Assembly (NCBI GenBank): GCA_951406725.2
Contig: OX597823.1
Span: 47,678,001 to 47,742,000, forward strand
DNA: 64,000 nucleotides
From: Octopus vulgaris
Taxonomy: Eukaryota
Direction: 5' to 3'
Shown: piece after piece, positions 1 through 31,049 of the stretch
Layout: each line of letters starts with the position of its first letter
Position numbering within the stretch: the first letter of the stretch is position 1
The notes under the pieces: model-generated
Databases searched by the model: none
Told to the model about the DNA's origin: nothing
The model's input: the letters and a program-made list of their open reading frames with translations, nothing else
Translations under genes and position numbers: made by a program

Positions 1-253
1 CCATTTTTTATTTGTTATACATGGGAAAGACATACAAAACGTTAAAAAACTGGTGTTAACCAAGTGGTACGAACACGAAGATTGGAGCTACACGGTTGTG
101 GATAGTGATGATACGGGTATATTGGCGACAAGGTTAGAGGAAGAGGGTGTGTGTTGGAAGTCAGTGAAAATGAAAGATGAATGGATAGAGAGGGCTAAAA
201 GAAAAACGAATGTTGTGATAGGTGAAACAGGAATACAAATTGGAAATGGGTGA
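1..253 (+). CDS. C-terminal part of a family A ORF1-like protein (truncated by window edge)
   Basis: Matches the C-terminus of the downstream A units (...LTKWYEHEDWSY...IGETGIQIGNG). Confidence 0.85.
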   Translation, partial: HFLFVIHGKDIQNVKKLVLTKWYEHEDWSYTVVDSDDTGILATRLEEEGVCWKSVKMKDEWIERAKRKTNVVIGETGIQIGNG

Positions 254-599
254 AGAAGGACAGACAAGTGATGCTGGCGGATGGGGCCGTCGGTATCACT
301 CTCATATATCATTTTTCATATTCCATTTTGCTCATATATATGTAATTGTGATGTTCCATGTCCCCATGTCTTGTAATGTCCCCCTCTTCGTTGGCCCCTT
401 GTGGGTAATAAAAAATCACGTGGTTTTTTCGGCTCTGTGTTTTTTGCTCTCTGTGGAATTCGGTAAAAAGAAAAAAGAACAAAAAGTGAATGGTTGTTGG
501 TGTAAAATTTTGAACATAGTTGATGAGGTTTCGCGTCTCACTGGTTCTGCGCGTTACACTTTTTCGGTTCGGGAGGCCGTTTCTCGGCCGGAGGCGACT

Positions 600-1928
600 A
601 TGAGCCGCCTCCATCAAGCGGAGGAGATGGAAGGGAGAATTTACTCTGAAATTTCGACGGAAGTATCGACATCTGAGGAGGAGTTGGCGGTGAAAAAGAT
701 GGAAGGCACCTACGCAGGTGTAACGAAGAAGTCAACGGAAAGAGAGATAGACTTGGCTAAGTTGGCGGGCCTCCAGGAATTTGTGAAGGAGGACGAGAAC
801 GGTGAAGTTGAGCTGCTGCATCCAGTAGGGTGCGGAGACTGGTTCCATCGTAGAACCATTAAATATAAAGTATTTATGAATGGAGGTAGAAAGATGGAAG
901 TAATTAACATGGAAGCAATTGAAGAGGCTCTTAAGCAGACGGGAGAGGAAATTGTGTACATGACGAAAGGATTACAATACGGAACCATAACGGTGCAATT
1001 TAAAAGTGAAAAAGCAGCCAGGAATGTAGCAGCCAAGGTGGTGAGTACAGAAAAGATTTACTTGTTACCCTCGTATCTGAATAGGCGGACAACTAGAATT
1101 AGGGTGGAGGGAATACCTCCACACCTAGAGGGCGAAGTAATAACGGCTGCGGTTATAAAAGGAAATGAGGATGAGGTGGACATCCTCCACGCCAGTATGA
1201 AGTATGAAGGCGTGAGAGGTGCCACACTGGTTATGAACATTCAAACGGAGACGGATGTTATAGAGAAGATTACGGACAGCATAAAGACTGGAAATATTAT
1301 TATGAGAGTGTGGGTGGAGGGTAGGGCGCCCAGGTGCTACAAGTGTGGCCAAAGGGGTCACATAAGAGCCTACTGCCCTCCCCCACCAAAGGAAAAAGAA
1401 AAGGAAAGCGTTGAGGAAGTCTCGGGAGAGGAAGAAAATAAACAGAAACAAACAGAGAAGGAAACGACAGAAGAAGAGGAGATGCAACAAGAGTGGAAAG
1501 AAGCGGGAACAAAGAGAAAAAGAAGGAAAAAGAAAAACTGTGCGAAGCCCCAACCCACCCCGACACCACCCATACCCTTGGAGTCCCATCCTTCCCCTGC
1601 AAACAGTAATTCCACCCACTCCCCGCCTACAAGAAGAATAAAAACAGACACACAGAGCAAAGAAAGTCCCAAGACCCATTTTTTATTTGTTATACATGGG
1701 AGAGACGTACAAAACGTTAAAAAACTGGTGTTAACCAAGTGGTACGAACACGAAGATTGGAGCTACACGGCTGTGGATGGTGATGATACGGGTATATTGG
1801 CGACAAGGTTAGAGGAAGAGGGTGTGTGTTGGAAGTCAGTGGAAATGAAAGATGAATGGATAGAGAGGGCTAAAAGAAAAACGAATGTTGTGATGGTTAA
1901 AACAGGAATACTAATTGAAAATGGGTGA
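600..1928 (+). CDS. Family A ORF1/gag-like CCHC zinc-knuckle protein, 442 aa (unit 1)
   Basis: ATG at 600 (MSRLHQ). TYAGVT motif, RRM-like segment YMTKGLQYGTITVQF, knuckle CYKCGQRGHIRAYC, acidic and basic tracts. Confidence 0.85.
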   Translation: MSRLHQAEEMEGRIYSEISTEVSTSEEELAVKKMEGTYAGVTKKSTEREIDLAKLAGLQEFVKEDENGEVELLHPVGCGDWFHRRTIKYKVFMNGGRKMEVINMEAIEEALKQTGEEIVYMTKGLQYGTITVQFKSEKAARNVAAKVVSTEKIYLLPSYLNRRTTRIRVEGIPPHLEGEVITAAVIKGNEDEVDILHASMKYEGVRGATLVMNIQTETDVIEKITDSIKTGNIIMRVWVEGRAPRCYKCGQRGHIRAYCPPPPKEKEKESVEEVSGEEENKQKQTEKETTEEEEMQQEWKEAGTKRKRRKKKNCAKPQPTPTPPIPLESHPSPANSNSTHSPPTRRIKTDTQSKESPKTHFLFVIHGRDVQNVKKLVLTKWYEHEDWSYTAVDGDDTGILATRLEEEGVCWKSVEMKDEWIERAKRKTNVVMVKTGILIENG

Positions 1929-2273
1929 AGAAGGACAGATAAGTGATGCTGGCGGATGGGGCCGTCGGTATCGCTCTCATATATCATTTTCATATTCCAT
2001 TTTGCTCATATATATGTAATTGTGATGTTCCATGTCCCCATGTCTTGTAATGTCCCCCTCTTCGTTGGCCCCTTGTGGGTAATAAAAAATCACGTGGTTT
2101 TTTCGGCTCTGTGTTTTTTGCTCTCTGTGAAATTCGGTAAAAAGAAAAAAGAACAAAAAGTGAATGGTTGTTGGTGTAAAATTTTGAACATAGTTGATGA
2201 GGTTTCGCGTCTCACTGGTTCTGCGCGTTACACTTTTTCGGTTCGGGAGGCCGTTTCTCGGCCGGAGGCGACT

Positions 2274-3602
2274 ATGAGCCGCCTCCATCAAGCGGAGGAG
2301 ATGGAAGGGAGAATTTACTCTGAAATTTCGACGGAAGTATCGACATCTGAGGAAGAGTTGGCGGTGAAAAAGATGGAAGGCACCTACGCAGGTGTAACGA
2401 AGAAGTCAACGGAAAGAGAGATAGACTTGGCTAAGTTGGCGGGCCTCCAGGAATTTGTGAAGGAGGACGAGAACGGTGAAGTTGAGCTGCTGCATCCAGT
2501 AGGGTGCGGAGACTGGTTCCATCGTAGAACCATTAAATATAAAGTATTTATGAATGGAGGTAGAAAGATGGAAGTAATTAACATGGAAGCAATTGAAGAG
2601 GCTCTTAAGCAGACGGGAGAGGAAATTGTGTACATGACGAAAGGATTACAATACGGAACCATAACGGTGCAATTTAAAAGTGAAAAAGCAGCCAGGAATG
2701 TAGCAGCCAAGGTGGTGAGTACAGAAAAGATTTACTTGTTACCCTCGTATCTGAATAGGCGGACAACTAGAATTAGGGTGGAGGGAATACCTCCACACCT
2801 AGAGGGCGAAGTAATAACGGCTGCGGTTATAAAAGGAAATGAGGATAAGGTGGACATCCTCCACGCCAGTATGAAGTATGAAGGCGTGAGAGGTGCCACA
2901 CTGGTTATGAACATTCAAACGGAGGCGGATGTTATAGAGAAGATTACGGACAGCATAAAGACTGGAAATATTATTATGAGAGTGTGGGTGGAGGGTAGGG
3001 CGCCCAGGTGCTACAAGTGTGGCCAAAGGGGTCACATAAGAGCCTACTGCCCTCCCCCACCAAAGGAAAAAGAAAAGGAAAGCGTTGAGGAAGCCTCGGG
3101 AGAGGAAGAAAATAAACAGAAACAAACAGAGAAGGAAACGACAGAAGAAGAGGAGACGCAACAAGAGTGGAAAGAAGCGGGAACAAAGAGAAAAAGAAGG
3201 AAAAAGAAAAACTGTGCGAAGCCCCAACCCACCCCGACACCACCCATACCCTTGGAGTCCCATCCTTCCCCTGCAAACAGTAATTCCACCCACTCCCCGC
3301 CTACAAGAAAAATAAAAACAGACACACAGAGCAAAGAAAGTCCCAAGACCCATTTTTTATTTGTTATACATGGGAAAGACATACAAAACGTTAAAAAACT
3401 GGTGTTAACCAAGTGGTACGAACACGAAGATTGGAGCTACACGGTTGTGGATAGTGATGATACGGGTATATTGGCGACAAGGTTAGAGGAAGAGGGTGTG
3501 TGTTGGAAGTCAGTGAAAATGAAAGATGAATGGAGAGAGAGGGCTAAAAGAAAAACGAATGTTGTGATAGGTGAAACAGGAATACAAATTGGAAATGGGT
3601 GA
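2274..3602 (+). CDS. Family A ORF1-like protein, 442 aa (unit 2)
   Basis: Intact near-identical copy of unit 1. Confidence 0.85.
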   Translation: MSRLHQAEEMEGRIYSEISTEVSTSEEELAVKKMEGTYAGVTKKSTEREIDLAKLAGLQEFVKEDENGEVELLHPVGCGDWFHRRTIKYKVFMNGGRKMEVINMEAIEEALKQTGEEIVYMTKGLQYGTITVQFKSEKAARNVAAKVVSTEKIYLLPSYLNRRTTRIRVEGIPPHLEGEVITAAVIKGNEDKVDILHASMKYEGVRGATLVMNIQTEADVIEKITDSIKTGNIIMRVWVEGRAPRCYKCGQRGHIRAYCPPPPKEKEKESVEEASGEEENKQKQTEKETTEEEETQQEWKEAGTKRKRRKKKNCAKPQPTPTPPIPLESHPSPANSNSTHSPPTRKIKTDTQSKESPKTHFLFVIHGKDIQNVKKLVLTKWYEHEDWSYTVVDSDDTGILATRLEEEGVCWKSVKMKDEWRERAKRKTNVVIGETGIQIGNG

Positions 3603-3947
3603 AGAAGGACAGACAAGTGATGCTGGCGGATGGGGCCGTCGGTATCACTCTCATATATCATTTTTCATATTCCATTTTGCTCATATATATGTAATTGTGA
3701 TGTTCCATGTCCCCATGTCTTGTAATGTCCCCCTCTTCGTTGGCCCCTTGTGGGTAATAAAAAATCACGTGGTTTTTCGGCTCTGTGTTTTTTGCTCTCT
3801 GTGAAATTCGGTAAAAAGAAAAAAGAACAAAAAGTGAATGGTTGTTGGTGTAAAATTTTGAACATAGTTGATGAGGTTTCGCGTCTCACTGGTTCTGCGC
3901 GTTACACTTTTTCGGTTCGGGAGGCCGTTTCTCGGCCGGAGGCGACT

Positions 3948-5276
3948 ATGAGCCGCCTCCATCAAGCGGAGGAGATGGAAGGGAGAATTTACTCTGAAAT
4001 TTCGACGGAAGTATCGACATCTGAGGAGGAGTTGGCGGTGAAAAAGATGGAAGGCACCTACGCAGGTGTAACGAAGAAGTCAACGGAAAGAGAGATAGAC
4101 TTGGCTAAGTTGGCGGGCCTCCAGGAATTTGTGAAGGAGGACGAGAACGGTGAAGTTGAGCTGCTGCATCCAGTAGGGTGCGGAGACTGGTTCCATCGTA
4201 GAACCATTAAATATAAAGTATTTATGAATGGAGGTAGAAAGATGGAAGTAATTAACATGGAAGCAATTGAAGAGGCTCTTAAGCAGACGGGAGAGGAAAT
4301 TGTGTACATGACGAAAGGATTACAATACGGAACCATAACGGTGCAATTTAAAAGTGAAAAAGCAGCCAGGAATGTAGCAGCCAAGGTGGTGAGTACAGAA
4401 AAGATTTACTTGTTACCCTCGTATCTGAATAGGCGGACAACTAGAATTAGGGTGGAGGGAATACCTCCACACCTAGAGGGCGAAGTAATAACGGCTGCGG
4501 TTATAAAAGGAAATGAGGATAAGGTGGACATCCTCCACGCCAGTATGAAGTATGAAGGCGTGAGAGGTGCCACACTGGTTATGAACATTCAAACGGAGGC
4601 GGATGTTATAGAGAAGATTACGGACAGCATAAAGACTGGAAATATTATTATGAGAGTGTGGGTGGAGGGTAGGGCGCCCAGGTGCTACAAGTGTGGCCAA
4701 AGGGGTCACATAAGAGCCTACTGCCCTCCCCCACCAAAGGAAAAAGAAAAGGAAAGCGTTGAGGAAGCCTCGGGAGAGGAAGAAAATAAACAGAAACAAA
4801 CAGAGAAGGAAACGACAGAAGAAGAGGAGACGCAACAAGAGTGGAAAGAAGCGGGAACAAAGAGAAAAAGAAGGAAAAAGAAAAACTGTGCGAAGCCCCA
4901 ACCCACCCCGACACCACCCATACCCTTGGAGTCCCATCCTTCCCCTGCAAACAGTAATTCCACCCACTCCCCGCCTACAAGAAAAATAAAAACAGACACA
5001 CAGAGCAAAGAAAGTCCCAAGACCCATTTTTTATTTGTTATACATGGGAAAGACATACAAAACGTTAAAAAACTGGTGTTAACCAAGTGGTACGAACACG
5101 AAGATTGGAGCTACACGGTTGTGGATAGTGATGATACGGGTATATTGGCGACAAGGTTAGAGGAAGAGGGTGTGTGTTGGAAGTCAGTGAAAATGAAAGA
5201 TGAATGGATAGAGAGGGCTAAAAGAAAAACGAATGTTGTGATAGGTGAAACAGGAATACAAATTGGAAATGGGTGA
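3948..5276 (+). CDS. Family A ORF1-like protein, 442 aa (unit 3)
   Basis: Intact copy. Confidence 0.85.
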   Translation: MSRLHQAEEMEGRIYSEISTEVSTSEEELAVKKMEGTYAGVTKKSTEREIDLAKLAGLQEFVKEDENGEVELLHPVGCGDWFHRRTIKYKVFMNGGRKMEVINMEAIEEALKQTGEEIVYMTKGLQYGTITVQFKSEKAARNVAAKVVSTEKIYLLPSYLNRRTTRIRVEGIPPHLEGEVITAAVIKGNEDKVDILHASMKYEGVRGATLVMNIQTEADVIEKITDSIKTGNIIMRVWVEGRAPRCYKCGQRGHIRAYCPPPPKEKEKESVEEASGEEENKQKQTEKETTEEEETQQEWKEAGTKRKRRKKKNCAKPQPTPTPPIPLESHPSPANSNSTHSPPTRKIKTDTQSKESPKTHFLFVIHGKDIQNVKKLVLTKWYEHEDWSYTVVDSDDTGILATRLEEEGVCWKSVKMKDEWIERAKRKTNVVIGETGIQIGNG

Positions 5277-5621
5277 AGAAGGACAGACAAGTGATGCTGG
5301 CGGATGGGGCCGTCGGTATCACTCTCATATATCATTTTTCATATTCCATTTTGCTCATATATATGTAATTGTGATGTTCCATGTCCCCATGTCTTGTAAT
5401 GTCCCCCTCTTCGTTGGCCCCTTGTGGGTAATAAAAAATCACGTGGTTTTTCGGCTCTGTGTTTTTTGCTCTCTGTGAAATTCGGTAAAAAGAAAAAAGA
5501 ACAAAAAGTGAATGGTTGTTGGTGTAAAATTTTGAACATAGTTGATGAGGTTTCGCGTCTCACTGGTTCTGCGCGTTACACTTTTTCGGTTCGGGAGGCC
5601 GTTTCTCGGCCGGAGGCGACT

Positions 5622-6950
5622 ATGAGCCGCCTCCATCAAGCGGAGGAGATGGAAGGGAGAATTTACTCTGAAATTTCGACGGAAGTATCGACATCTGAGG
5701 AGGAGTTGGCGGTGAAAAAGATGGAAGGCACCTACGCAGGTGTAACGAAGAAGTCAACGGAAAGAGAGATAGACTTGGCTAAGTTGGCGGGCCTCCAGGA
5801 ATTTGTGAAGGAGGACGAGAACGGTGAAGTTGAGCTGCTGCATCCAGTAGGGTGCGGAGACTGGTTCCATCGTAGAACCATTAAATATAAAGTATTTATG
5901 AATGGAGGTAGAAAGATGGAAGTAATTAACATGGAAGCAATTGAAGAGGCTCTTAAGCAGACGGGAGAGGAAATTGTGTACATGACGAAAGGATTACAAT
6001 ACGGAACCATAACGGTGCAATTTAAAAGTGAAAAAGCAGCCAGGAATGTAGCAGCCAAGGTGGTGAGTACAGAAAAGATTTACTTGTTACCCTCGTATCT
6101 GAATAGGCGGACAACTAGAATTAGGGTGGAGGGAATACCTCCACACCTAGAGGGCGAAGTAATAACGGCTGCGGTTATAAAAGGAAATGAGGATAAGGTG
6201 GACATCCTCCACGCCAGTATGAAGTATGAAGGCGTGAGAGGTGCCACACTGGTTATGAACATTCAAACGGAGGCGGATGTTATAGAGAAGATTACGGACA
6301 GCATAAAGACTGGAAATATTATTATGAGAGTGTGGGTGGAGGGTAGGGCGCCCAGGTGCTACAAGTGTGGCCAAAGGGGTCACATAAGAGCCTACTGCCC
6401 TCCCCCACCAAAGGAAAAAGAAAAGGAAAGCGTTGAGGAAGCCTCGGGAGAGGAAGAAAATAAACAGAAACAAACAGAGAAGGAAACGACAGAAGAAGAG
6501 GAGATGCAACAAGAGTGGAAAGAAGCGGGAACAAAGAGAAAAAGAAGGAAAAAGAAAAACTGTGCGAAGCCCCAACCCACCCCGACACCACCCATACCCT
6601 TGGAGTCCCATCCTTCCCCTGCAAACAGTAATACCACCCACTCCCCGCCTACAAGAAAAATAAAAACAGACACACAGAGCAAAGAAAGTCCCAAGACCCA
6701 TTTTTTATTTGTTATACATGGGAAAGACATACAAAACGTTAAAAAACTGGTGTTAACCAAGTGGTACGAACACGAAGATTGGAGCTACACGGTTGTGGAT
6801 AGTGATGATACGGGTATATTGGCGACAAGGTTAGAGGAAGAGGGTGTGTGTTGGAAGTCAGTGAAAATGAAAGATGAATGGATAGAGAGGGCTAAAAGAA
6901 AAACGAATGTTGTGATAGGTGAAACAGGAATACAAATTGGAAATGGGTGA
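5622..6950 (+). CDS. Family A ORF1-like protein, 442 aa (unit 4)
   Basis: Intact copy. Confidence 0.85.
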   Translation: MSRLHQAEEMEGRIYSEISTEVSTSEEELAVKKMEGTYAGVTKKSTEREIDLAKLAGLQEFVKEDENGEVELLHPVGCGDWFHRRTIKYKVFMNGGRKMEVINMEAIEEALKQTGEEIVYMTKGLQYGTITVQFKSEKAARNVAAKVVSTEKIYLLPSYLNRRTTRIRVEGIPPHLEGEVITAAVIKGNEDKVDILHASMKYEGVRGATLVMNIQTEADVIEKITDSIKTGNIIMRVWVEGRAPRCYKCGQRGHIRAYCPPPPKEKEKESVEEASGEEENKQKQTEKETTEEEEMQQEWKEAGTKRKRRKKKNCAKPQPTPTPPIPLESHPSPANSNTTHSPPTRKIKTDTQSKESPKTHFLFVIHGKDIQNVKKLVLTKWYEHEDWSYTVVDSDDTGILATRLEEEGVCWKSVKMKDEWIERAKRKTNVVIGETGIQIGNG

Positions 6951-7296
6951 AGAAGGACAGACAAGTGATGCTGGCGGATGGGGCCGTCGGTATCACTCTC
7001 ATATATCATTTTTCATATTCCATTTTGCTCATATATATGTAATTGTGATGTTCCATGTCCCCATGTCTTGTAATGTCCCCCTCTTCGTTGGCCCCTTGTG
7101 GGTAATAAAAAATCACGTGGTTTTTTCGGCTCTGTGTTTTTTGCTCTCTGTGGAATTCGGTAAAAAGAAAAAAGAACAAAAAGTGAATGGTTGTTGGTGT
7201 AAAATTTTGAACATAGTTGATGAGGTTTCGCGTCTCACTGGTTCTGCGCGTTACACTTTTTCGGTTCGGGAGGCCGTTTCTCGGCCGGAGGCGACT

Positions 7297-8625
7297 ATGA
7301 GCCGCCTCCATCAAGCGGAGGAGATGGAAGGGAGAATTTACTCTGAAATTTCGACGGAAGTATCGACATCTGAGGAGGAGTTGGCGGTGAAAAAGATGGA
7401 AGGCACCTACGCAGGTGTAACGAAGAAGTCAACGGAAAGAGAGATAGACTTGGCTAAGTTGGCGGGCCTCCAGGAATTTGTGAAGGAGGACGAGAACGGT
7501 GAAGTTGAGCTGCTGCATCCAGTAGGGTGCGGAGACTGGTTCCATCGTAGAACCATTAAATATAAAGTATTTATGAATGGAGGTAGAAAGATGGAAGTAA
7601 TTAACATGGAAGCAATTGAAGAGGCTCTTAAGCAGACGGGAGAGGAAATTGTGTACATGACGAAAGGATTACAATACGGAACCATAACGGTGCAATTTAA
7701 AAGTGAAAAAGCAGCCAGGAATGTAGCAGCCAAGGTGGTGAGTACAGAAAAGATTTACTTGTTACCCTCGTATCTGAATAGGCGGACAACTAGAATTAGG
7801 GTGGAGGGAATACCTCCACACCTAGAGGGCGAAGTAATAACGGCTGCGGTTATAAAAGGAAATGAGGATGAGGTGGACATCCTCCACGCCAGTATGAAGT
7901 ATGAAGGCGTGAGAGGTGCCACACTGGTTATGAACATTCAAACGGAGACGGATGTTATAGAGAAGATTACGGACAGCATAAAGACTGGAAATATTATTAT
8001 GAGAGTGTGGGTGGAGGGTAGGGCGCCCAGGTGCTACAAGTGTGGCCAAAGGGGTCACATAAGAGCCTACTGCCCTCCCCCACCAAAGGAAAAAGAAAAG
8101 GAAAGCGTTGAGGAAGTCTCGGGAGAGGAAGAAAATAAACAGAAACAAACAGAGAAGGAAACGACAGAAGAAGAGGAGATGCAACAAGAGTGGAAAGAAG
8201 CGGGAACAAAGAGAAAAAGAAGGAAAAAGAAAAACTGTGCGAAGCCCCAACCCACCCCGACACCACCCATACCCTTGGAGTCCCATCCTTCCCCTGCAAA
8301 CAGTAATTCCACCCACTCCCCGCCTACAAGAAGAATAAAAACAGACACACAGAGCAAAGAAAGTCCCAAGACCCATTTTTTATTTGTTATACATGGGAGA
8401 GACGTACAAAACGTTAAAAAACTGGTGTTAACCAAGTGGTACGAACACGAAGATTGGAGCTACACGGCTGTGGATGGTGATGATACGGGTATATTGGCGA
8501 CAAGGTTAGAGGAAGAGGGTGTGTGTTGGAAGTCAGTGGAAATGAAAGATGAATGGATAGAGAGGGCTAAAAGAAAAACGAATGTTGTGATGGTTAAAAC
8601 AGGAATACTAATTGAAAATGGGTGA
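7297..8625 (+). CDS. Family A ORF1-like protein, 442 aa (unit 5; same variant as unit 1)
   Basis: Intact; translation identical to unit 1 in the ORF track. Confidence 0.85.
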   Translation: MSRLHQAEEMEGRIYSEISTEVSTSEEELAVKKMEGTYAGVTKKSTEREIDLAKLAGLQEFVKEDENGEVELLHPVGCGDWFHRRTIKYKVFMNGGRKMEVINMEAIEEALKQTGEEIVYMTKGLQYGTITVQFKSEKAARNVAAKVVSTEKIYLLPSYLNRRTTRIRVEGIPPHLEGEVITAAVIKGNEDEVDILHASMKYEGVRGATLVMNIQTETDVIEKITDSIKTGNIIMRVWVEGRAPRCYKCGQRGHIRAYCPPPPKEKEKESVEEVSGEEENKQKQTEKETTEEEEMQQEWKEAGTKRKRRKKKNCAKPQPTPTPPIPLESHPSPANSNSTHSPPTRRIKTDTQSKESPKTHFLFVIHGRDVQNVKKLVLTKWYEHEDWSYTAVDGDDTGILATRLEEEGVCWKSVEMKDEWIERAKRKTNVVMVKTGILIENG

Positions 8626-8970
8626 AGAAGGACAGATAAGTGATGCTGGCGGATGGGGCCGTCGGTATCGCTCTCATATATCATTTTCATATTCCATTTT
8701 GCTCATATATATGTAATTGTGATGTTCCATGTCCCCATGTCTTGTAATGTCCCCCTCTTCGTTGGCCCCTTGTGGGTAATAAAAAATCACGTGGTTTTTT
8801 CGGCTCTGTGTTTTTTGCTCTCTGTGAAATTCGGTAAAAAGAAAAAAGAACAAAAAGTGAATGGTTGTTGGTGTAAAATTTTGAACATAGTTGATGAGGT
8901 TTCGCGTCTCACTGGTTCTGCGCGTTACACTTTTTCGGTTCGGGAGGCCGTTTCTCGGCCGGAGGCGACT

Positions 8971-10299
8971 ATGAGCCGCCTCCATCAAGCGGAGGAGATG
9001 GAAGGGAGAATTTACTCTGAAATTTCGACGGAAGTATCGACATCTGAGGAAGAGTTGGCGGTGAAAAAGATGGAAGGCACCTACGCAGGTGTAACGAAGA
9101 AGTCAACGGAAAGAGAGATAGACTTGGCTAAGTTGGCGGGCCTCCAGGAATTTGTGAAGGAGGACGAGAACGGTGAAGTTGAGCTGCTGCATCCAGTAGG
9201 GTGCGGAGACTGGTTCCATCGTAGAACCATTAAATATAAAGTATTTATGAATGGAGGTAGAAAGATGGAAGTAATTAACATGGAAGCAATTGAAGAGGCT
9301 CTTAAGCAGACGGGAGAGGAAATTGTGTACATGACGAAAGGATTACAATACGGAACCATAACGGTGCAATTTAAAAGTGAAAAAGCAGCCAGGAATGTAG
9401 CAGCCAAGGTGGTGAGTACAGAAAAGATTTACTTGTTACCCTCGTATCTGAATAGGCGGACAACTAGAATTAGGGTGGAGGGAATACCTCCACACCTAGA
9501 GGGCGAAGTAATAACGGCTGCGGTTATAAAAGGAAATGAGGATAAGGTGGACATCCTCCACGCCAGTATGAAGTATGAAGGCGTGAGAGGTGCCACACTG
9601 GTTATGAACGTTCAAACGGAGGCGGATGTTATAGAGAAGATTACGGACAGCATAAAGACTGGAAATATTATTATGAGAGTGTGGGTGGAGGGTAGGGCGC
9701 CCAGGTGCTACAAGTGTGGCCAAAGGGGTCACATAAGAGCCTACTGCCCTCCCCCACCAAAGGAAAAAGAAAAGGAAAGCGTTGAGGAAGCCTCGGGAGA
9801 GGAAGAAAATAAACAGAAACAAACAGAGAAGGAAACGACAGAAGAAGAGGAGATGCAACAAGAGTGGAAAGAAGCGGGAACAAAGAGAAAAAGAAGGAAA
9901 AAGAAAAACTGTGCGAAGCCCCAACCCACCCCGACACCACCCATACCCTTGGAGTCCCATCCTTCCCCTGCAAACAGTAATTCCTCCCACTCCCCGCCTA
10001 CAAGAAAAATAAAAACAGACACACAGAGCAAAGAAAGTCCCAAGACCCATTTTTTATTTGTTATACATGGGAAAGACATACAAAACGTTAAAAAACTGGT
10101 GTTAACCAAGTGGTACGAACACGAAGATTGGAGCTACACGGTTGTGGATAGTGATGATACGGGTATATTGGCGACAAGGTTAGAGGAAGAGGGTGTGTGT
10201 TGGAAGTCAGTGAAAATGAAAGATGAATGGAGAGAGAGGGCTAAAAGAAAAACGAATGTTGTGATAGGTGAAACAGGAATACAAATTGGAAATGGGTGA
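8971..10299 (+). CDS. Family A ORF1-like protein, 442 aa (unit 6)
   Basis: Intact copy. Confidence 0.85.
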   Translation: MSRLHQAEEMEGRIYSEISTEVSTSEEELAVKKMEGTYAGVTKKSTEREIDLAKLAGLQEFVKEDENGEVELLHPVGCGDWFHRRTIKYKVFMNGGRKMEVINMEAIEEALKQTGEEIVYMTKGLQYGTITVQFKSEKAARNVAAKVVSTEKIYLLPSYLNRRTTRIRVEGIPPHLEGEVITAAVIKGNEDKVDILHASMKYEGVRGATLVMNVQTEADVIEKITDSIKTGNIIMRVWVEGRAPRCYKCGQRGHIRAYCPPPPKEKEKESVEEASGEEENKQKQTEKETTEEEEMQQEWKEAGTKRKRRKKKNCAKPQPTPTPPIPLESHPSPANSNSSHSPPTRKIKTDTQSKESPKTHFLFVIHGKDIQNVKKLVLTKWYEHEDWSYTVVDSDDTGILATRLEEEGVCWKSVKMKDEWRERAKRKTNVVIGETGIQIGNG

Positions 10300-10645
10300 A
10301 GAAGGACAGACAAGTGATGCTGGCGGATGGGGCCGTCGGTATCACTCTCATATATCATTTTTCATATTCCATTTTGCTCATATATATGTAATTGTGATGT
10401 TCCATGTCCCCATGTCTTGTAATGTCCCCCTCTTCGTTGGCCCCTTGTGGGTAATAAAAAATCACGTGGTTTTTTCGGCTCTGTGTTTTTTGCTCTCTGT
10501 GAAATTCGGTAAAAAGAAAAAAGAACAAAAAGTGAATGGTTGTTGGTGTAAAATTTTGAACATAGTTGATGAGGTTTCGCGTCTCACTGGTTCTGCGCGT
10601 TACACTTTTTCGGTTCGGGAGGCCGTTTCTCGGCCGGAGGCGACT

Positions 10646-11974
10646 ATGAGCCGCCTCCATCAAGCGGAGGAGATGGAAGGGAGAATTTACTCTGAAATTT
10701 CGACGGAAGTATCGACATCTGAGGAGGAGTTGGCGGTGAAAAAGATGGAAGGCACCTACGCAGGTGTAACGAAGAAGTCAACGGAAAGAGAGATAGACTT
10801 GGCTAAGTTGGCGGGCCTCCAGGAATTTGTGAAGGAGGACGAGAACGGTGAAGTTGAGCTGCTGCATCCAGTAGGGTGCGGAGACTGGTTCCATCGTAGA
10901 ACCATTAAATATAAAGTATTTATGAATGGAGGTAGAAAGATGGAAGTAATTAACATGGAAGCAATTGAAGAGGCTCTTAAGCAGACGGGAGAGGAAATTG
11001 TGTACATGACGAAAGGATTACAATACGGAACCATAACGGTGCAATTTAAAAGTGAAAAAGCAGCCAGGAATGTAGCAGCCAAGGTGGTGAGTACAGAAAA
11101 GATTTACTTGTTACCCTCGTATCTGAATAGGCGGACAACTAGAATTAGGGTGGAGGGAATACCTCCACACCTAGAGGGCGAAGTAATAACGGCTGCGGTT
11201 ATAAAAGGAAATGAGGATAAGGTGGACATCCTCCACGCCAGTATGAAGTATGAAGGCGTGAGAGGTGCCACACTGGTTATGAACATTCAAACGGAGGCGG
11301 ATGTTATAGAGAAGATTACGGACAGCATAAAGACTGGAAATATTATTATGAGAGTGTGGGTGGAGGGTAGGGCGCCCAGGTGCTACAAGTGTGGCCAAAG
11401 GGGTCACATAAGAGCCTACTGCCCTCCCCCACCAAAGGAAAAAGAAAAGGAAAGCGTTGAGGAAGCCTCGGGAGAGGAAGAAAATAAACAGAAACAAACA
11501 GAGAAGGAAACGACAGAAGAAGAGGAGACGCAACAAGAGTGGAAAGAAGCGGGAACAAAGAGAAAAAGAAGGAAAAAGAAAAACTGTGCGAAGCCCCAAC
11601 CCACCCCGACACCACCCATACCCTTGGAGTCCCATCCTTCCCCTGCAAACAGTAATTCCACCCACTCCCCGCCTACAAGAAAAATAAAAACAGACACACA
11701 GAGCAAAGAAAGTCCCAAGACCCATTTTTTATTTGTTATACATGGGAAAGACATACAAAACGTTAAAAAACTGGTGTTAACCAAGTGGTACGAACACGAA
11801 GATTGGAGCTACACGGTTGTGGATAGTGATGATACGGGTATATTGGCGACAAGGTTAGAGGAAGAGGGTGTGTGTTGGAAGTCAGTGAAAATGAAAGATG
11901 AATGGAGAGAGAGGGCTAAAAGAAAAACGAATGTTGTGATAGGTGAAACAGGAATACAAATTGGAAATGGGTGA
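10646..11974 (+). CDS. Family A ORF1-like protein, 442 aa (unit 7)
   Basis: Intact copy. Confidence 0.85.
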   Translation: MSRLHQAEEMEGRIYSEISTEVSTSEEELAVKKMEGTYAGVTKKSTEREIDLAKLAGLQEFVKEDENGEVELLHPVGCGDWFHRRTIKYKVFMNGGRKMEVINMEAIEEALKQTGEEIVYMTKGLQYGTITVQFKSEKAARNVAAKVVSTEKIYLLPSYLNRRTTRIRVEGIPPHLEGEVITAAVIKGNEDKVDILHASMKYEGVRGATLVMNIQTEADVIEKITDSIKTGNIIMRVWVEGRAPRCYKCGQRGHIRAYCPPPPKEKEKESVEEASGEEENKQKQTEKETTEEEETQQEWKEAGTKRKRRKKKNCAKPQPTPTPPIPLESHPSPANSNSTHSPPTRKIKTDTQSKESPKTHFLFVIHGKDIQNVKKLVLTKWYEHEDWSYTVVDSDDTGILATRLEEEGVCWKSVKMKDEWRERAKRKTNVVIGETGIQIGNG

Positions 11975-12320
11975 AGAAGGACAGACAAGTGATGCTGGCG
12001 GATGGGGCCGTCGGTATCACTCTCATATATCATTTTTCATATTCCATTTTGCTCATATATATGTAATTGTGATGTTCCATGTCCCCATGTCTTGTAATGT
12101 CCCCCTCTTCGTTGGCCCCTTGTGGGTAATAAAAAATCACGTGGTTTTTTCGGCTCTGTGTTTTTTGCTCTCTGTGAAATTCGGTAAAAAGAAAAAAGAA
12201 CAAAAAGTGAATGGTTGTTGGTGTAAAATTTTGAACATAGTTAATGCGGTTTCGCGTCTCACTGGTTCTGCGCGTTACACTTTTTCGGTTCGGGAGGCCG
12301 TTTCTCGGCCGGAGGCGACT

Positions 12321-13650
12321 ATGAGCCGCCTCCATCAAGCGGAGGAGATGGAAGGGAGAATTTACTCTGAAATTTCGACGGAAGTATCGACATCTGAGGA
12401 GGAGTTGGCGGTGAAAAAGATGGAAGGCACCTACGCAGGTGTAACGAAGAAGTCAACGGAAAGAGAGATAGATTTGGCTAAGTTGGCGGGCCTCCAGGAA
12501 TTTGTGAAGGAGGACGAGAACGGTGAAGTTGAGCTGCTGCATCCAGTAGGGTGCGGAGACTGGTTCCATCGTAGAACCATTAAATATAAAGTATTTATGA
12601 ATGGAGGTAGAAAGATGGAAGTAATTAACATGGAAGCAATTGAAGAGGCTCTTAAGCAGACGGGAGAGGAAATTGAGTACATGACGAAAGGATTACAATA
12701 CGGAACCATAACGGTGCAATTTAAAAGTGAAAAAGCAGCCAGGAATGTGGCAGCCAAGGTGGTGAGTACAGAAAAGATTTACTTGTTACCCTCGTATCTG
12801 AATAGGCGGACAACTAGAATTAGGGTGGAGGGAATACCTCCACACCTAGAGGGCGAAGTAATAACGGCTGCGGTTATAAAAGGAAATGAGGATAAGGTGG
12901 ACATCCTCCACGCCAGTATGAAGTATGAAGGCGTGAGAGGTGCCACACTGGTTATGAACATTCAAACGGAGGCGGATGTTATAGAGAAGATTACGGACAG
13001 CATAAAGACTGGAAATATTATTATGAGAGTGTGGGTGGAGGGTAGGGCGCCCAGGTGCTACAAGTGTGGCCAAAGGGGTCACATAAGAGCCTACTGCCCT
13101 CCCCCACCAAAGGAAAAAAGAAAAGGAAAGCGTTGAGGAAGCCTCGGGAGAGGAAGAAAATAAACAGAAACAAACAGAGAAGGAAACGACAGAAGAAGAG
13201 GAGATGCAACAAGAGTGGAAAGAAGCGGGAACAAAGAGAAAAAGAAGGAAAAAGAAAAACTGTGCGAAGCCCCAACCCACCCCGACACCACCCATACCCT
13301 TGGAGTCCCATCCTTCCCCTGCAAACAGTAATTCCACCCACTCCCCGCCTACAAGAAAAATAAAAACAGACACACAGAGCAAAGAAAGTCCCAAGACCCA
13401 TTTTTTATTTGTTATACATGGGAAAGACATACAAAACGTTAAAAAACTGGTGTTAACCAAGTGGTACGAACACGAAGATTGGAGCTACACGGTTGTGGAT
13501 AGTGATGATACGGGTATATTGGCGACAAGGTTAGAGGAAGAGGGTGTGTGTTGGAAGTCAGTGAAAATGAAAGATGAATGGATAGAGAGGGCTAAAAGAA
13601 AAACGAATGTTGTGATAGGTGAAACAGGAATACAAATTGGAAATGGGTGA
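12321..13650 (+). pseudogene. Family A ORF1-like copy with +1 frameshift (unit 8)
   Basis: Extra A in the run at ~13114-13119; may be a sequencing homopolymer error. Confidence 0.7.
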
Positions 13651-13978
13651 AGAAGGACAGACAAGTGATGCTGGCGGATGGGGCCGTCGGTATCACTCTC
13701 ATATATCATTTTTCATATTCCATTTTGCTCATATATATGTAATTGTGATGTTCCATGTCCCCATGTCTTGTAATGTCCCCCTCTTCGTTGGCCCCTTGTG
13801 GGTAATAAAGAATCACGTGGTTTTTTCGGCTCCTGAAAATTCGGTAAAAAAGAACAAAAAGCGTTGTTGTTGTTGTGGAAATTCTGAACGGCGTTGACGC
13901 GGTTTCGCGTTTCGCTCGTTCAGCGCGTTACACTTTTTCTGTTTTGGCGGCCGTTTTCGGTCTGTCAGACAGAAGGAG

Positions 13979-15393
13979 ATGGACTATGAGTCTCTAACAG
14001 ACTTGTCCACGACAGATGAGGAACTGGAACAGGCAATTGCAGTGAAGCTGATGGAGGAAAAGGCTGGAGTTTTTGAGTCTTTATCAGACTTGCCTATGTC
14101 TGAGAAGGAGCTAGAAATGGCAGCAAGGAAATTGGAAGACAAGCTGAGTTATACCTATGCCGGTGTAACCAAGAAGGCGGAAGAGAAAGGGGTCGACATG
14201 GCCAAGTTGCCAAGTTACCAGAAATACATGAAAAAGGAAAGCGGTGAGGTGGAACTATCACCGACACCCAGGAGAAAAGAATGGTATGATAAGAGGACCA
14301 TTGTTTACAGGGTGTGCGCAAACGAAAGGAAGAGGGTAGAAGTTGTATCCATGGAATGGATAGAGGAAGCCCTGCGAAGAACTGAGGAGGAAATAAATTT
14401 TCTGACTCGAGGATCCAAGTACGGGACCGTAGTTGTGCACTTTAAAAGTGAATCTGCAGCGAGGAAGATGGCAGCGAAGGCGGTGAAGTCGGAAAAGGTA
14501 ACACTGTTACCTACGTATTTAAACAGGAGGATTACACGAATAAGGGTGGAGGGAGTGCCACCAAACGTGGAGGCAGAATGGATTGTGGCGGCTGTGATCA
14601 GCGGCCACGAGGACGAAGTGGATATTCTCCATGCCTCGGTTAAGTCCGAGGGCTGGAGAGGCGTAACAGTGGAGCTGAACGTACAGGCAGAGACCGAGGT
14701 ACTGGTGGACCTGACGGAAAGCATCAGACTGGGAGAAGTGATCATGAGAGTGTGGGTGGAGGGCAGGGCTCCACGTTGTTACAAGTGTGGCCTGAGGGGT
14801 CACATAAGAGCCTTCTGCCCTCCCCCAGGGAAAGAAACGGATTCCGAACCAGAGAGAGAGAGCAGAAACCAGAGGAGAAGGAAACTGAGGAAGAGAATAC
14901 ACAGAAATGGAAGGAAGCTGGAAGTAAGAGGAAGAGAAGAATTCATGGAAAAGAAAATAATATGGAACTCCAATCTACCCCAAAACCACCCACACCCTCT
15001 GAGTCCCACCCTATCCATGCAGACATTGAACCCACCCGCTCCCCCCCAACAAGAAAACAAAAGAAAAAAAAGAATACACATACACAAGAGATTGAAATCG
15101 AGCCCAGGCCGTACATTTGTACTGTGACTGAACGGAGAGAAGTTGAAAGTCTAATGGAGGAGTATAAATGGTATGATGTTGGAGAGACTAGGTATGCTGT
15201 GATTGAAAGGAAGAACATAGGTGAGTTTGTGGGGAGGTGTGAAGGGGAGGATTGGGAGGTGAAAGATGTAAGAATGAGCGATGAATTCGTGGAAGGTGTG
15301 AATGAGTGTTTCGGAGTAGGAATGGATATGGAATTTATTCGTATTGACAAAGAACATTCAAGTGACTATGAAAAACAAAGGACAGGTAAGTGA
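13979..15393 (+). pseudogene. Family B ORF1-like copy (MDYESL...) with -1 frameshift (unit 9)
   Basis: Knuckle CYKCGLRGHIRAFC; 1-nt loss at the end of the GA run ~14860 relative to intact unit 14. Confidence 0.75.
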
Positions 15394-15722
15394 TGCTGAC
15401 GGACGGGGCCGTTGGTATCACTTTCATTTTATCATTTTTCGTTTAACAATTCATGTTCATAAAGTTTAATTATAATGTTCTATGTCCCCATGTTTTGTAA
15501 TGTCCCCCTCTTCGTTGGCCCCTTGTGGGTAATAAAAAATCACGTTTTTTTTCGGCTCTGTGTTTTTTGCTCTCTGTGAAATTCGGTAAAAAGAAAAAAG
15601 AACAAAAAGTGAATGGTTGTTGGTGTAAAATTTTGAACATAGTTGATGAGGTTTCGCGTCTCACTGGTTCTGCGCGTTACACTTTTTCGGTTCGGGAGGC
15701 CGTTTCTCGGCCGGAGGCGACT

Positions 15723-17052
15723 ATGAGCCGCCTCCATCAAGCGGAGGAGATGGAAGGGAGAATTTACTCTGAAATTTCGACGGAAGTATCGACATCTGAG
15801 GAGGAGTTGGCGGTGAAAAAGATGGAAGGCACCTACGCAGGTGTAACGAAGAAGTCAACGGAAAGAGAGATAGACTTGGCTAAGTTGGCGGGCCTCCAGG
15901 AATTTGTGAAGGAGGACGAGAACGGTGAAGTTGAGCTGCTGCATCCAGTAGGGTGCGGAGACTGGTTCCATCGTAGAACCATTAAATATAAAGTATTTAT
16001 GAATGGAGGTAGAAAGATGGAAGTAATTAACATGGAAGCAATTGAAGAGGCTCTTAAGCAGACGGGAGAGGAAATTGTGTACATGACGAAAGGATTACAA
16101 TACGGAACCATAACGGTGCAATTTAAAAGTGAAAAAGCAGCCAGGAATGTAGCAGCCAAGGTGGTGAGTACAGAAAAGATTTACTTGTTACCCTCGTATC
16201 TGAATAGGCGGACAACTAGAATTAGGGTGGAGGGAATACCTCCACACCTAGAGGGCGAAGTAATAACGGCTGCGGTTATAAAAGGAAATGAGGATAAGGT
16301 GGACATCCTCCACGCCAGTATGAAGTATGAAGGCGTGAGAGGTGCCACACTGGTTATGAACATTCAAACGGAGGCGGATGTTATAGAGAAGATTACGGAC
16401 AGCATAAAGACTGGAAATATTATTATGAGAGTGTGGGTGGAGGGTAGGGCGCCCAGGTGCTACAAGTGTGGCCAAAGGGGTCACATAAGAGCCTACTGCC
16501 CTCCCCCACCAAAGGAAAAAGAAAAGGAAAGCGTTGAGGAAGCCTCGGGAGAGGAAGAAAATAAACAGAAACAAACAGAGAAGGAAACGACAGAAGAAGA
16601 GGAGATGCAACAAGAGTGGAAAGAAGCGGGAACAAAGAGAAAAAGAAGGAAAAAGAAAAACTGTGCGAAGCCCCAAACCACCCCGACACCACCCATACCC
16701 TTGGAGTCCCATCCTTCCCCTGCAAACAGTAATTCCACCCACTCCCCGCCTACAAGAAGAATAAAAACAGACACACAGAGCAAAGAAAGTCCCAAGACCC
16801 ATTTTTTATTTGTTATACATGGGAGAGACGTACAAAACGTTAAAAAAACTGGTGTTAACCAAGTGGTACGAACACGAAGATTGGAGCTACACGGCTGTGG
16901 ATGGTGATGATACGGGTATATTGGCGACAAGGTTAGAGGAAGAGGGTGTGTGTTGGAAGTCAGTGGAAATGAAAGATGAATGGATAGAGAGGGCTACAAG
17001 AAAAACGAATGTTGTGATGGTTAAAACAGGAATACTAATTGAAAATGGGTGA
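15723..17052 (+). pseudogene. Family A ORF1-like copy with +1 frameshift (unit 10)
   Basis: Extra A in the run at ~16842-16848. Confidence 0.7.
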
Positions 17053-17379
17053 AGAAGGACAGATAAGTGATGCTGGCGGATGGGGCCGTCGGTATCGCTC
17101 TCATATATCATTTTCATATTCCATTTTGCTCATATATATGTAATTGTGATGTTCCATGTCCCCATGTCTTGTAATGTCCCCCTCTTCGTTGGCCCCTTGT
17201 GGGTAATAAAAAATCACGTGGTTTTTTCGGCTCCTGAAAATTCGGTAAAAAAGAACAAAAAGCGTTGTTGTTGTTGTGGAAATTCTGAACGGCGTTGACG
17301 CGGTTTCGCGTTTCGCTCGTTCAGCGCGTTACACTTTTTCTGTTTTGGCGGCCGTTTTCGGTCTGTCAGACAGAAGGAG

Positions 17380-18794
17380 ATGGACTATGAGTCTCTAACA
17401 GACTTGTCCACGACAGATGAGGAACTGGAACAGGCAATTGCAGTGAAGCTGATGGAGGAAAAGGCTGGAGTTTTTGAGTCTTTATCAGACTTGCCTATGT
17501 CTGAGAAGGAGCTAGAAATGGCAGCAAGGAAATTGGAAGACAAGCTGAGTTATACCTATGCCGGTGTAACCAAGAAGGCGGAAGAGAAAGGGGTCGACAT
17601 GGCCAAGTTGCCAAGTTACCAGAAATACATGAAAAAGGAAAGCGGTGAGGTGGAACTATCACCGACACCCAGGAGAAAAGAATGGTATGATAAGAGGACC
17701 ATTGTTTACAGGGTGTGCGCAAACGAAAGGAAGAGGGTAGAAGTTGTATCCATGGAATGGATAGAGGAAGCCCTGCGAAGAACTGAGGAGGAAATAAATT
17801 TTCTGACTCGAGGATCCAAGTACGGGACCGTAGTTGTGCACTTTAAAAGTGAATCTGCAGCGAGGAAGATGGCAGCGAAGGCGGTGAAGTCGGAAAAGGT
17901 AACACTGTTACCTACGTATTTAAACAGGAGGATTACACGAATAAGGGTGGAGGGAGTGCCACCAAACGTGGAGGCAGAATGGATTGTGGCGGCTGTGATC
18001 AGCGGCCACGAGGACGAAGTGGATATTCTCCATGCCTCGGTTAAGTCCGAGGGCTGGAGAGGCGTAACAGTGGAGCTGAACGTACAGGCAGAGACCGAGG
18101 TACTGGTGGACCTGACGGAAAGCATCAGACTGGGAGAAGTGATCATGAGAGTGTGGGTGGAGGGCAGGGCTCCACGTTGTTACAAGTGTGGCCTGAGGGG
18201 TCACATAAGAGCCTTCTGCCCTCCCCCAGGGAAAGAAACGGATTCCGAACCAGAGAGAGAGAAGCAGAAACCAGAGGAGAAGGAAACAGAGGAAGAGAAT
18301 ACACAGAAATGGAAGGAAGCTGGAAGTAAGAGGAAGAGAAGAATTCATGGAAAAGAAAATAATATGGAACTCCAATCTACCCCAAAACCACCCACACCCT
18401 CTGAGTCCCACCCTATCCATGCAGACATTGAACCCACCCGCTCCCCCCAACAAGAAAACAAAAGAAAAAAAAGAATACACATACACAAGAGATTGAAATC
18501 GAACCCAGGCCGTACATTTGTACTATGACTGAACAGAAAGAAGTTAAAAGTCTAATGGAAGAGTATAAATGGTATGATGTTGGAGAGACTAGGTATGCTG
18601 TGATTGAAAAGAAGAACATAGGTGAGTTTATGGGGAGGTGTGAAAGGGAGAATTGGGAGGTGAAAGATATAAGAATGAGCGATGAATTCGTGGAAAATAT
18701 GGATGAGTATTTCGGAGTAAGAATGGATATGGAATTTATTCGTATTGACAAAGAACATTCAAGTGACTATGAACAACAAAGGACAGGTAAGTGA
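17380..18794 (+). pseudogene. Family B ORF1-like copy with -1 frameshift (unit 11)
   Basis: One C missing in the C-run at ~18443-18448. Confidence 0.75.
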
Positions 18795-19108
18795 TGCTGA
18801 CGGACGGGGCCGTTGGTATCACTTTCATTTTATCATTTTTCGTTTAACAATTCATGTTCATAAAGTTTAATTATAATGTTCTATGTCCCCATGTTTTGTA
18901 ATGTCCCCCTCTTCGTTGGCCCCTTGTGGGTAATAAAAAATCACGTGTTTTTTTGCTCTCTGTGAAATTCGGTTAAAAGAAAAAAGAACAAAAGGTGAAT
19001 GGTTGTTGTTGTAAAATTTTGAACATAGTTGATGCGGTTTCGAGTCTCACTGGTTCTGCGCGTTACACTTTTTCGGTTCGGGAGGCCGTTTTTCGGCCGG
19101 AGGCGACT

Positions 19109-20481
19109 ATGAGCCGCCTCCATCAAGCGGAGGAGATGGAAGGGAGAATTTACTCTGAAATTTCGACAGAAGTATCGACATCTGAGGAGGAGTTGGTGGT
19201 GAAAAAGATGGAAGGCACCTACGCAGGTGTAACGAAGAAGTCAACGGAAAGAGAGATAGACCTGGCGAAGTTGGCGGGCCTCCAGGAGTTTGTGAAGGAG
19301 GACGAGAACGGTGAAGTTGAGCTGCTGCATCCAGTAGGGTGCGGAGACTGGTTCCATCGTAGAACCATTAAATATAAAGTATTTATGAATGGAGGTAGAA
19401 AGATGGAAGTAATTAACATGGAAGCAATTGAAGAGGCTCTCAAGCAGACAGGAGAGGAAATTGTGTACATGACAAAAGGATTACAATACGGAACCATAAC
19501 GGTGCAATTTAAAAGTGAAAAAGCAGCCAGGAATGTAGCAGCCAAGGTGGTGAGTACAGAAAAGATTTACTTGTTACCCTCGTATCTGAATAGGCGGACA
19601 ACAAGAATTAGGGTGGAGGGAATACCTCCACACCTAGAGGGCGAATTAATAACGGCTGCGGTTATAAAAGGAAATGAAGATAAAGTGGACATCCTCCACG
19701 CCATTATGAAGTATGAAGGCGTGAGAGGTGCCACACTAGTTATGAACATTCAAACGGAGGCGGATGTTATAGAGAGGATTACGGACAGCATAAAAACTGG
19801 AAATATTATTATGAGAGTGTGGGTGGAGGGTAGGGCGCCCAGGTGCTACAAGTGTGGCCAAAGGGGTCACATAAGAGCCTACTGCCCTCCCCCACCAAAG
19901 GAAAAAGAAAAGGAAAGCGTTGAGGAAGCCTCAGGAGAGGAAGAAAATAAACAGAAACAAACAGAGAGGGAAACGACAGAAGAAGAGGAGATGCAACAAG
20001 AGTGGAAAGAAGGGGGAACAAAGAGAAAAAGAAAGAAAAAGAAAACTGTGCGAAGCCCCAACCCACCCCAACACCACCCGCACCCTCTGAATCCCACCCT
20101 TCCCCTACAGACAGTGAACCCACCCGCTCCCCTCCAACAAGAAAACAAAAGAAAAATAATAATACAGACAGACAAGAGTTTGAAAACGAACCCAGGCCGA
20201 ACATTTATATTGTGACTGAACAGAAAGAGGTTGAAAGGGTAATGGAGGAGTATGAATGGTATGAAATGGATGGGACCAGATATGCAGTGCTGGAAAAGAA
20301 GAATATAGATGAGTTTGTGTTGAGGTGTGAAAGGGAGAATTGGGAGGTGAAAGATACAAGAATGAGCGATGAATTCGTGGAATATATGGAGGACAGTTTC
20401 GGAGTAAGAATGGATATGGATGGTCTTCGTATTGGGAATGAACATTCAGGTGACAGTGAAAACAAAAGGACAGGTAAGTGA
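19109..20481 (+). pseudogene. Chimeric ORF1-like copy: A-type N-terminus, B-like C-terminal domain, one frameshift (unit 12)
   Basis: MSRLHQ... up to the basic tract, then ...SEPTRSPPTRKQKK...EPRPNIYIVTEQ...; frameshift in the A-rich run at ~20030-20045. Confidence 0.75.
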
Positions 20482-20793
20482 TGCTGGCGGAGGGGGCCGT
20501 TAGCATCGCTTTCATATATCATTTTCAAAATTCATTTTACTCATATCTATGTAATTGTGATGTTCTATGTCCCCAATGTTTGTAACGTCCCCTCTATGTA
20601 GCCCCTAGTGGGTAATAAAGAATCAGGTCGTGTTTTTTTGCTCTCTGTGAAATTCGGTAAAAAGAAAAAAGAACAAAAGGTGAATGGTTGTTGTTGTAAA
20701 ATTTTGAACATAGTTGATGCGGTTTCGAGTCTCACTGGTTCTGCGCGTTACACTTTTTCGGTTCGGGAGGCCGTTTTTCGGCCGGAGGCGACT

Positions 20794-22167: not shown

Positions 22168-22473
22168 CGGATGGGGCCGTTGGCACCGCTTTCATATATC
22201 ATTTTCAAAATTCATTTTACTCATATCTATGTAATTGTGATGTTCTATGTCCCCAATGTTTGTAACGTCCCCTCTATGTAGCCCCTAGTGGGTAATAAAG
22301 AATCAGGTCGTGTTTTTTTGCGCTTTGTAAAATTCGGTTAAAAAAGAACAAAAAGCGTTGTTGTTGTTGTGGAAATTCTGAACGGCGTTGACGCGGTTTC
22401 GCGTTTCGCTCGTTCAGCGCGTTACACTTTTTCTGTTTTGGCGGCCGTTTTCGGTCTGTCAGACAGAAAGGAA

Positions 22474-23889: not shown

Positions 23890-24200
23890 TGCTGACGGAC
23901 GGGGCCGTTGGTATCGCTTTCATTTTATCATTTTTTCGTTTAACAATTCATTTTCATAAAGTTTAATTATAATGTTCTATGTCCCCATGTTTTGTTATGT
24001 CCGCCATTCTTCGTAGCCCCTTAGTGGGTAATAAAGAAATCAGATTTGAACTCCGCGGTCGTGTTTTGAAAATTTACCCACGTGTGTTGTTATCTGTGAC
24101 TAGACAGTGAAATTTTGTTGTGTAAATTGATTATTATCGCGCGAGGCGCTTGCCTCCACGTGTGGAAACCTTCCGAAGAAGGTGAATTGACCCTCTAGTC

Positions 24201-31041: not shown

Positions 31042-31049
31042 GGTAAGTA

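Follow-up and report, generated by a model that had tools for sequence, protein, structure and literature searches.

The 3' UTRs of a LINE and of the ORF1-only units arrayed with it in Octopus vulgaris hold two short complementary tracts, a G-run in the loop of a hairpin (P1) and a C-run further downstream, which are predicted to pair across a long linker. Based on comparison between lineages, we judge this long-range G-run/C-run pairing, here called the clasp, very probably real, the support being moderate but consistent.

The window, which is the whole stretch of 64,000 nucleotides that was analysed, opens within a head-to-tail array whose start lies about 9.6 kb further upstream. The ORF1-only units of the array are 1.7-1.8 kb each, are of types A, B and D, and have as their sole coding sequence an ORF1 with a CCHC knuckle; the corresponding Pfam family, PF00098, was matched in four of four ORF1 queries and exceeded Pfam's cut-off in one. 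The coding features are:

1..34689, forward strand: head-to-tail array of ORF1-only units with one LINE at its end, recognised by unit sequence and terminal motifs.
29973..30739, forward strand: LINE ORF1 with zinc knuckle (domain match), in two frames in the window copy.
31050..34445, forward strand: LINE ORF2, intact, 1131 aa, with APE endonuclease, RT and zf-RVT (ORF and Pfam).

ORF2 matches PF03372 and PF00078 and, at its C-terminus, the zinc-binding domain PF13966. Its best hit among solved structures (PDB) is human L1 ORF2p (E 9e-66; R2, E 4e-26), and its best named homologue, from Argonauta, is 63% identical over the RT region. Distant relatives were present in metagenomes, one flanked by U2 snRNA pieces (Keno-like) and one followed by 5S rRNA. 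We read the window LINE as a member of the Tx1 clade of the L1 group. It shows a target preference, the same flank lying 3' of most of the 30 closest LINE copies. The 3' flank of the window copy (34690-34980) is itself ORF1-like sequence (tblastn E 1e-4), and a piece of it of about 13 bp reappears between stacked units, as would follow from successive insertions that restore the target. Two units at 19109-22167 are chimeric, being A-type in the 5' half and B-like in the 3' half.

The order of elements was the same at all 19 forward-strand terminal motifs in the window, including the unit that ends at 24018: P1 with its G-run, a U-rich linker, the C-run and a conserved tail. In the first A unit these are:

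267..300, forward strand: P1 hairpin, 14 bp with loop AUGGGG, present in every A unit (folding).
281..286, forward strand: P1 loop, 5' strand of the predicted long-range helix, adjoining the P1 3' arm (sequence, constrained folding).
301..361, forward strand: linker, U-rich and G-poor with YCAY repeats, the long loop of the predicted pseudoknot (composition).
362..367, forward strand: C-run tract, 3' strand of the predicted long-range helix (complementarity, co-variation).
372..412, forward strand: tail common to a SINE, with a TGTnnnGTCC motif and AATAAA and without long poly(A); terminal 4-bp hairpin at 394-406 (alignment).

YCAY occurred 83 times in the linkers of 18 non-independent representatives, compared with a shuffle mean of 56.7 (0/500), and the YCAY-rich linker may serve as a binding platform for a host protein. 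The other units and the LINE carry variants of the same arrangement:

15389..15422, forward strand: B-unit P1 with loop ACGGGG, of which only the G4/C4 core pairs (C-run at 15486-15489).
20477..20510, forward strand: P1 variant with five G, its own tract having four C (sequence).
22157..22190, forward strand: P1 variant in which an A-U pair has become G-C, a compensatory change; its 5' arm contains the ORF stop (sequence).
25685..25703, forward strand: P1 apex of the D-type ORF1-only unit, CGGGGA, with partner tract 25797-25802 (sequence, folding).
34475..34521, forward strand: LINE P1, a three-segment stem with loop UGGGGUC at 34494-34500 (alignment, folding).
34626..34645, forward strand: LINE P2, a small hairpin with C-run 34632-34635 in its loop, the outer pairs co-varying between subfamilies (alignment).
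34646..34689, forward strand: LINE tail, with terminal hairpin 34667-34679 and a short A-rich end (alignment).

All strings cited in an earlier, sequence-only reading of this DNA lie where it placed them. The 14-bp stem that it described in the A unit is more stable than expected by chance (z -4.68; 0/200 shuffles as stable), the compensatory A-U to G-C change in the unit at 22157-22190 is real, and pairing in B units is limited, as it had said, to the 4-bp G4/C4 core. The D hairpin is weaker against shuffles (z -2.40) and the LINE hairpin by itself is not significant (z -0.36), so that the LINE case rests on comparison. A LINE stem is indeed found where the earlier reading had put it, at 34489-34505, but it extends further, in three segments. 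That reading had also called the A, D and LINE stems unrelated; they look instead like diverged homologues, linked via intermediate families. Dispersed relatives of the five-G loop type at 20477-20510 carry five C. The idea of a switch coupled to the stop codon was dropped, the stop-to-hairpin distance ranging from overlap to more than 60 nt.

Tail patterns that omit both the G-run and the C-run gave 727, 109 and 225 genome matches in partly overlapping sets, and the fetched subset comprised 183 distinct non-SINE ends in 77 clusters. These ends belong to several LINE subfamilies, about 46-99% identical in the C-terminal part of ORF2, and to ORF1-only lineages A, B, C, D and E, between which ORF1 identity is about 30-50%. 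Loop and tract read UGGGGUC and GACCCCA in the LINE, AUGGGG and CCCCAU in A, CGGGGA and UCCCCG in D, and GUGGGG and CCCCAC in E; a B-related family combines a five-G loop with a five-C tract. Sister LINE lineages with ORF2 about 40-60% identical also keep a G-run and a downstream C-run before the conserved tail. One sister lineage with a different UTR, found by protein search with a diverged homologue, is identical at 93 of 158 ORF2 C-terminal residues (59%). Its young copies have AGGGUUUU versus AAAACCCU at the equivalent places (GGGUUUU in older copies), and a loop-tract duplex of -6 kcal/mol or better is predicted for 63 of the 65 distinct copies. Downstream of sister-lineage copies lies (ATT)n. 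The sister-lineage tail pattern, with 1284 matches, brought up further lineages, about 40-46% identical, whose loop/tract pairs include GUGGGG/CCCCAC and GUGGGGUU/AACCCCAC. A second young Tx1 lineage, with many intact 1145-aa frames at a 5.9-kb tandem spacing and then (ATT)n, has two extra UTR hairpins beside the clasp. From metagenomes, 80 loci were fetched and 36 examined past the ORF2 stop, two of these having no UTR; by eye, tail motif or clasp was seen in none of the 34 readable UTRs (mostly 23-33% identical), so the motif appears restricted to the Tx1 clade studied. The LINE UTR itself is covered by contigs from four runs with four organism labels, and among the contig rows listed, which give neither ends nor strand, there were no substitutions in 34493-34500 or 34630-34636.

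The main evidence for pairing comes from a swap test, in which the duplex energy of each loop with its own tract was compared with its energy with the tracts of other lineages; representatives and run boundaries were hand-picked, and independent lineages are few. The test returned 3/120 permutations for five lineages and 2088/362,880 for nine (p about 0.006). Without lineage H, whose loop and tract come from different copies, it gave 764/40,320, and with two non-pairing old copies added, 1214/200,000. The flanking pairs seen were U-A, C-G, G-C and A-U. In no more than 8 of 14 rows was the own tract among the two best, with lineage I placed 13th, and in the single old copies J and K loop and tract do not pair.

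Within the LINE, the named structure scored 0.25 for covariation in 27 hand-picked copies, compared with 0.18 when shuffled (0/500) and at most 0.095 when slid along the alignment. P1 and P2 supply most of this signal. In these copies the long-range helix is paired to 96.9%, its G/C core being nearly invariant, and both-sided changes in it were confined to two cells, one copy each. Unaided, RNAalifold returned just the long-range helix and the terminal hairpin from the 27 copies; for 28 sister-lineage UTRs, both the long-range helix and the enclosing hairpin were missing from its output. Apparent compensations of the core in single copies were attributed to decay and therefore rejected. A G-C to A-U change in one D-type copy was read as CpG decay: the CAGGG loop occurs, scattered, in 7 of the 100 matches listed (of 116), and another D-type copy with this loop still has CCCCG. 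A CTCC-tract family (9 matches, 7 real copies) has a matching GGAG in 0 of 6 copies with a visible loop, and a GCGG loop was present in two copies, the sole matches of its pattern, with no matching tract.

These results also bear on whether the two runs pair at all. The runs could be two separate protein-binding sites, for example for G-run and C-run binders near a polyadenylation signal, and their complementarity would then be incidental. The nearly invariant core, the weak pairing in B, the unpaired copies J and K and the failure of the alignment fold in the sister lineage would all fit such sites. We consider them improbable, given that the flanks change in a matched fashion across lineages (p about 0.006-0.02) and that the loop geometry fits a pseudoknot.

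Regarding this geometry, the pairing segment, when kept unpaired, is part of a hairpin loop in 23 of 24 representatives, and it ends 0-1 nt from the P1 3' arm in 17 of 18 in the main clade. Leaving the G-run segment unpaired costs no energy in 11 of the 18 main-clade representatives; exposing it costs 1.4-7.2 kcal/mol in sister lineages and 3-5 kcal/mol in D, and the minimum-energy fold of the window's D unit closes part of the G-run, with an opening cost of about 5 kcal/mol. Loop and tract are about 54-157 nt apart, and this spacing is not conserved. The predicted layout is that of an H-type pseudoknot with a long third loop. LINE lineages add P2 around their C-run, a hairpin absent from the earlier reading. 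It is 82.7% paired in the 27 LINE copies, with two outer pairs that change on both sides, and a stable P2 is absent in A, B and D. Because the long-range helix could be extended only at the expense of inner P2 pairs, the LINE form would be a kissing loop or a two-state fold, in which P2 either kisses P1 or opens to lengthen the helix.

The tail downstream of the clasp has a far wider distribution. Its terminal motif matched the genome 128,002 times (control, 0), and the first 30 of these loci were all tRNA-like SINE copies by inspection; we take this SINE to be Nin-type. The last 60 nt or so of the SINE can be aligned to the end of the LINE apart from 12 nt, whose deletion has removed the C-run and the P2 3' arm. 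CCCC stands at the C-run position in 1 of 53 SINE ends versus 149 of 186 non-SINE ends, decayed copies being counted among the latter. The terminal hairpin is 100% paired in the 27 LINE copies, and in the sister lineage one C-G pair of it is replaced by G-C. SINE and LINE thus have in common a tail with a conserved stem-loop, as do LINE/SINE pairs of the stringent type. The longest A-run 3' of the tail is at most 8 nt in 177 of 182 non-SINE ends (these are genomic ends, and the poly(A) state of the RNA may differ), and A-runs are equally short at SINE ends. Two insertion sites internal to the SINE are common to SINE (23/59 ends) and LINE-family (7/183 ends) copies. Common sites and equally short A-runs are consistent with one shared enzyme, and we infer that the SINE is mobilised by the Tx1 LINE.

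Several features of the SINE were observed besides. Its tandem units of 184 bp restart at about position 55 of the SINE head, a site that follows 18 of 59 SINE ends. TGGGGTC also occurs inside the SINE, where it is locally paired in the one copy folded. In the minimum-energy fold of one copy, the part of the tail that stands in place of the deleted C-run is paired with the 5' head.

The sequence-only reading had proposed a co-varying pairing common to autonomous and ORF1-only RNAs and had interpreted it as an RT-recognition element. The first part is supported and extends to many more lineages; the second is at odds with a SINE that lacks the C-run. The pseudoknot could still be part of an RT-recognition element like the avian R2 pseudoknot-hinge-stem, with the SINE using a reduced version and compensating by abundance. 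In every coding lineage the conserved tail does follow the clasp directly, and the R2 proteins of birds and turtles are reported to bind a pseudoknot in the 3' UTR, with activity restored by compensatory mutations (PMC11601368, PMC12222951). However, the R2 fold described there is a compact one of 65-67 nt, whereas the strands here are far apart and variably spaced. If the SINE is a passenger, a compact module in all mobilised RNAs is not what we see, since it is absent in 52 of 53 SINE ends. Without a C-run, the SINE end motif nevertheless reaches about 128,000 matches, compared with the few hundred of each of the three non-SINE patterns. We therefore regard an RT-recognition role of the clasp as rather unlikely, although it is the most plausible of the alternatives considered here.

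We propose instead, as a reading with about an even chance of being right, that the 3' UTR consists of two modules: a tail that would act as the RT handle, and an upstream clasp that would act on the Pol II coding RNA and not in priming. The terminal 45-60 nt or so, with the 4-bp hairpin, would be the handle for ORF2p. Upstream, the G-run of the P1 loop would pair with the C-run in cis, stack on P1 and loop out the U-rich linker, and the compact fold might protect or license an RNA that has no introns and probably little poly(A), at the level of stability, export from the nucleus or loading with ORF1p. This step would be superfluous for a Pol III SINE, which could have dropped the clasp. Two considerations favour such a division. 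First, the clasp is kept by all coding, presumably Pol II-transcribed members and lost by the presumably Pol III-transcribed SINE, which favours a role at the mRNA stage. Second, if the SINE is a passenger, its lack of a C-run implies that the clasp is not needed for priming and that the RT handle is the tail.

Co-variation looks alike for pairing in cis and for homodimers, and the loop and tract of different RNA molecules might kiss, dimerising ORF1-only RNAs or co-packaging them with LINE RNA. The invariant core permits pairing across families, the LINE loop binding the A tract at -13.2 kcal/mol compared with -11.5 kcal/mol for A with A. Other observations in line with kissing between molecules are the CCHC knuckle of the ORF1 proteins, the chimeric A/B units of the array and the kissing loops that are reported to start dimerisation in Ty1 (PMC5454406). 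Yet the lineage-specific matching of flanks points to self-pairing, pairing between D and LINE is weak (-9.2 and -9.6 kcal/mol) although D units travel with the LINE, and recombination within arrays can also make chimeras. Pairing between molecules thus seems to us a doubtful explanation. Were it correct, the clasp would provide a non-LTR retrotransposon with a retrovirus-like RNA dimerisation step that co-packages passengers with ORF2p, and it would also account for the chimeric units. We know of no dimer-packaging step for LINEs.

The head-to-tail arrangement raises a further possibility, since unit-length RNA needs some release from array transcripts, and the earlier reading had suggested self-cleavage or processing. 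We found no support for a ribozyme that frees the units. No Rfam match in the window was above the gathering score, those near the UTRs being at chance level, and there is no conserved core apart from the two runs. The 5' limits of homology range from 41 to 596 nt with no peak (69/187 ends), and AATAAA follows the tail. A self-cleaving or processing element is thus very improbable.

If the two-module reading is right, the SINE represents a natural split of the UTR into a common tail and a dispensable long-range pairing. The clade brings together intact young LINEs, ORF1-only passengers and a SINE, with natural deletion and compensatory variants, and these variants could separate the RNA signals for priming from those for stability, export or packaging. 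The system also bears on the shift of L1-group RTs from recognition of a folded tail to recognition of poly(A).

The terminal module resembles known stringent tails. Maize LINE1-1_ZM with ZmSINE2/3 and Chlamydomonas L1-1_CR with SINEX-3_CR have a last 45-80 nt or so common to LINE and SINE, with a small hairpin (PMC3747384), and the stem-loops of zebrafish ZfL2 show a similar likeness (PMC4176376). The Chlamydomonas pair ends in poly(A), in contrast to the short A-ends here, and the accessible parts of these two papers describe no upstream long-range pairing. In light of the structured, stringently recognised 3' ends that PMC3747384 reports for plant and algal L1-clade elements, the earlier view that a structured 3' end is unexpected for the L1 group was overstated.

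Animal Tx1 3' ends have received little description in the literature that we searched, outside which lay Repbase reports, most subscription journals and supplements; within it we found no long-range pairing or pseudoknot for Tx1 or L1-group 3' UTRs. A paper on octopus repeats counts recent L1-Tx1 families, in its accessible text without detail on UTR pairing (PMC13282606). Like the LINE studied here, target-specific Tx1 families insert into other repeats or microsatellites (PMC4494074). ORF1-only non-autonomous derivatives are likewise known as HAL1 half-L1 elements; these derive from mammalian L1, and the part of the report available mentions no common structured UTR (PMC5753468).

For the clasp, avian and testudine R2 (PMC11601368, PMC12222951) provide the closest parallel, a 3' UTR pseudoknot upstream of a terminal stem whose architecture is kept while the primary sequence has diverged. 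R2 is an RLE-type element with a compact module of about 65 nt for which protein binding was shown, whereas the element here is an APE-type Tx1 whose partner SINE lacks the pairing. Two LTR elements offer likenesses as well. The musD transport element MTE (PMC4588558) also lies near a retroelement 3' end and requires a kissing loop and a pseudoknot for nuclear export; it spans about 400 nt and is experimentally proven, and the likeness would be functional only. Ty1 SL1a-SL3a (PMC5454406) similarly consists of two hairpins with complementary apices, which are needed for RNA stability and retrotransposition, but they lie at the 5' end and the dimer is packaged in particles. Pseudoknots in R2 3' UTRs and stringent tails in plant and algal L1-clade elements were already known; new, and moderately supported, is a long-range pairing in a Tx1 3' UTR.
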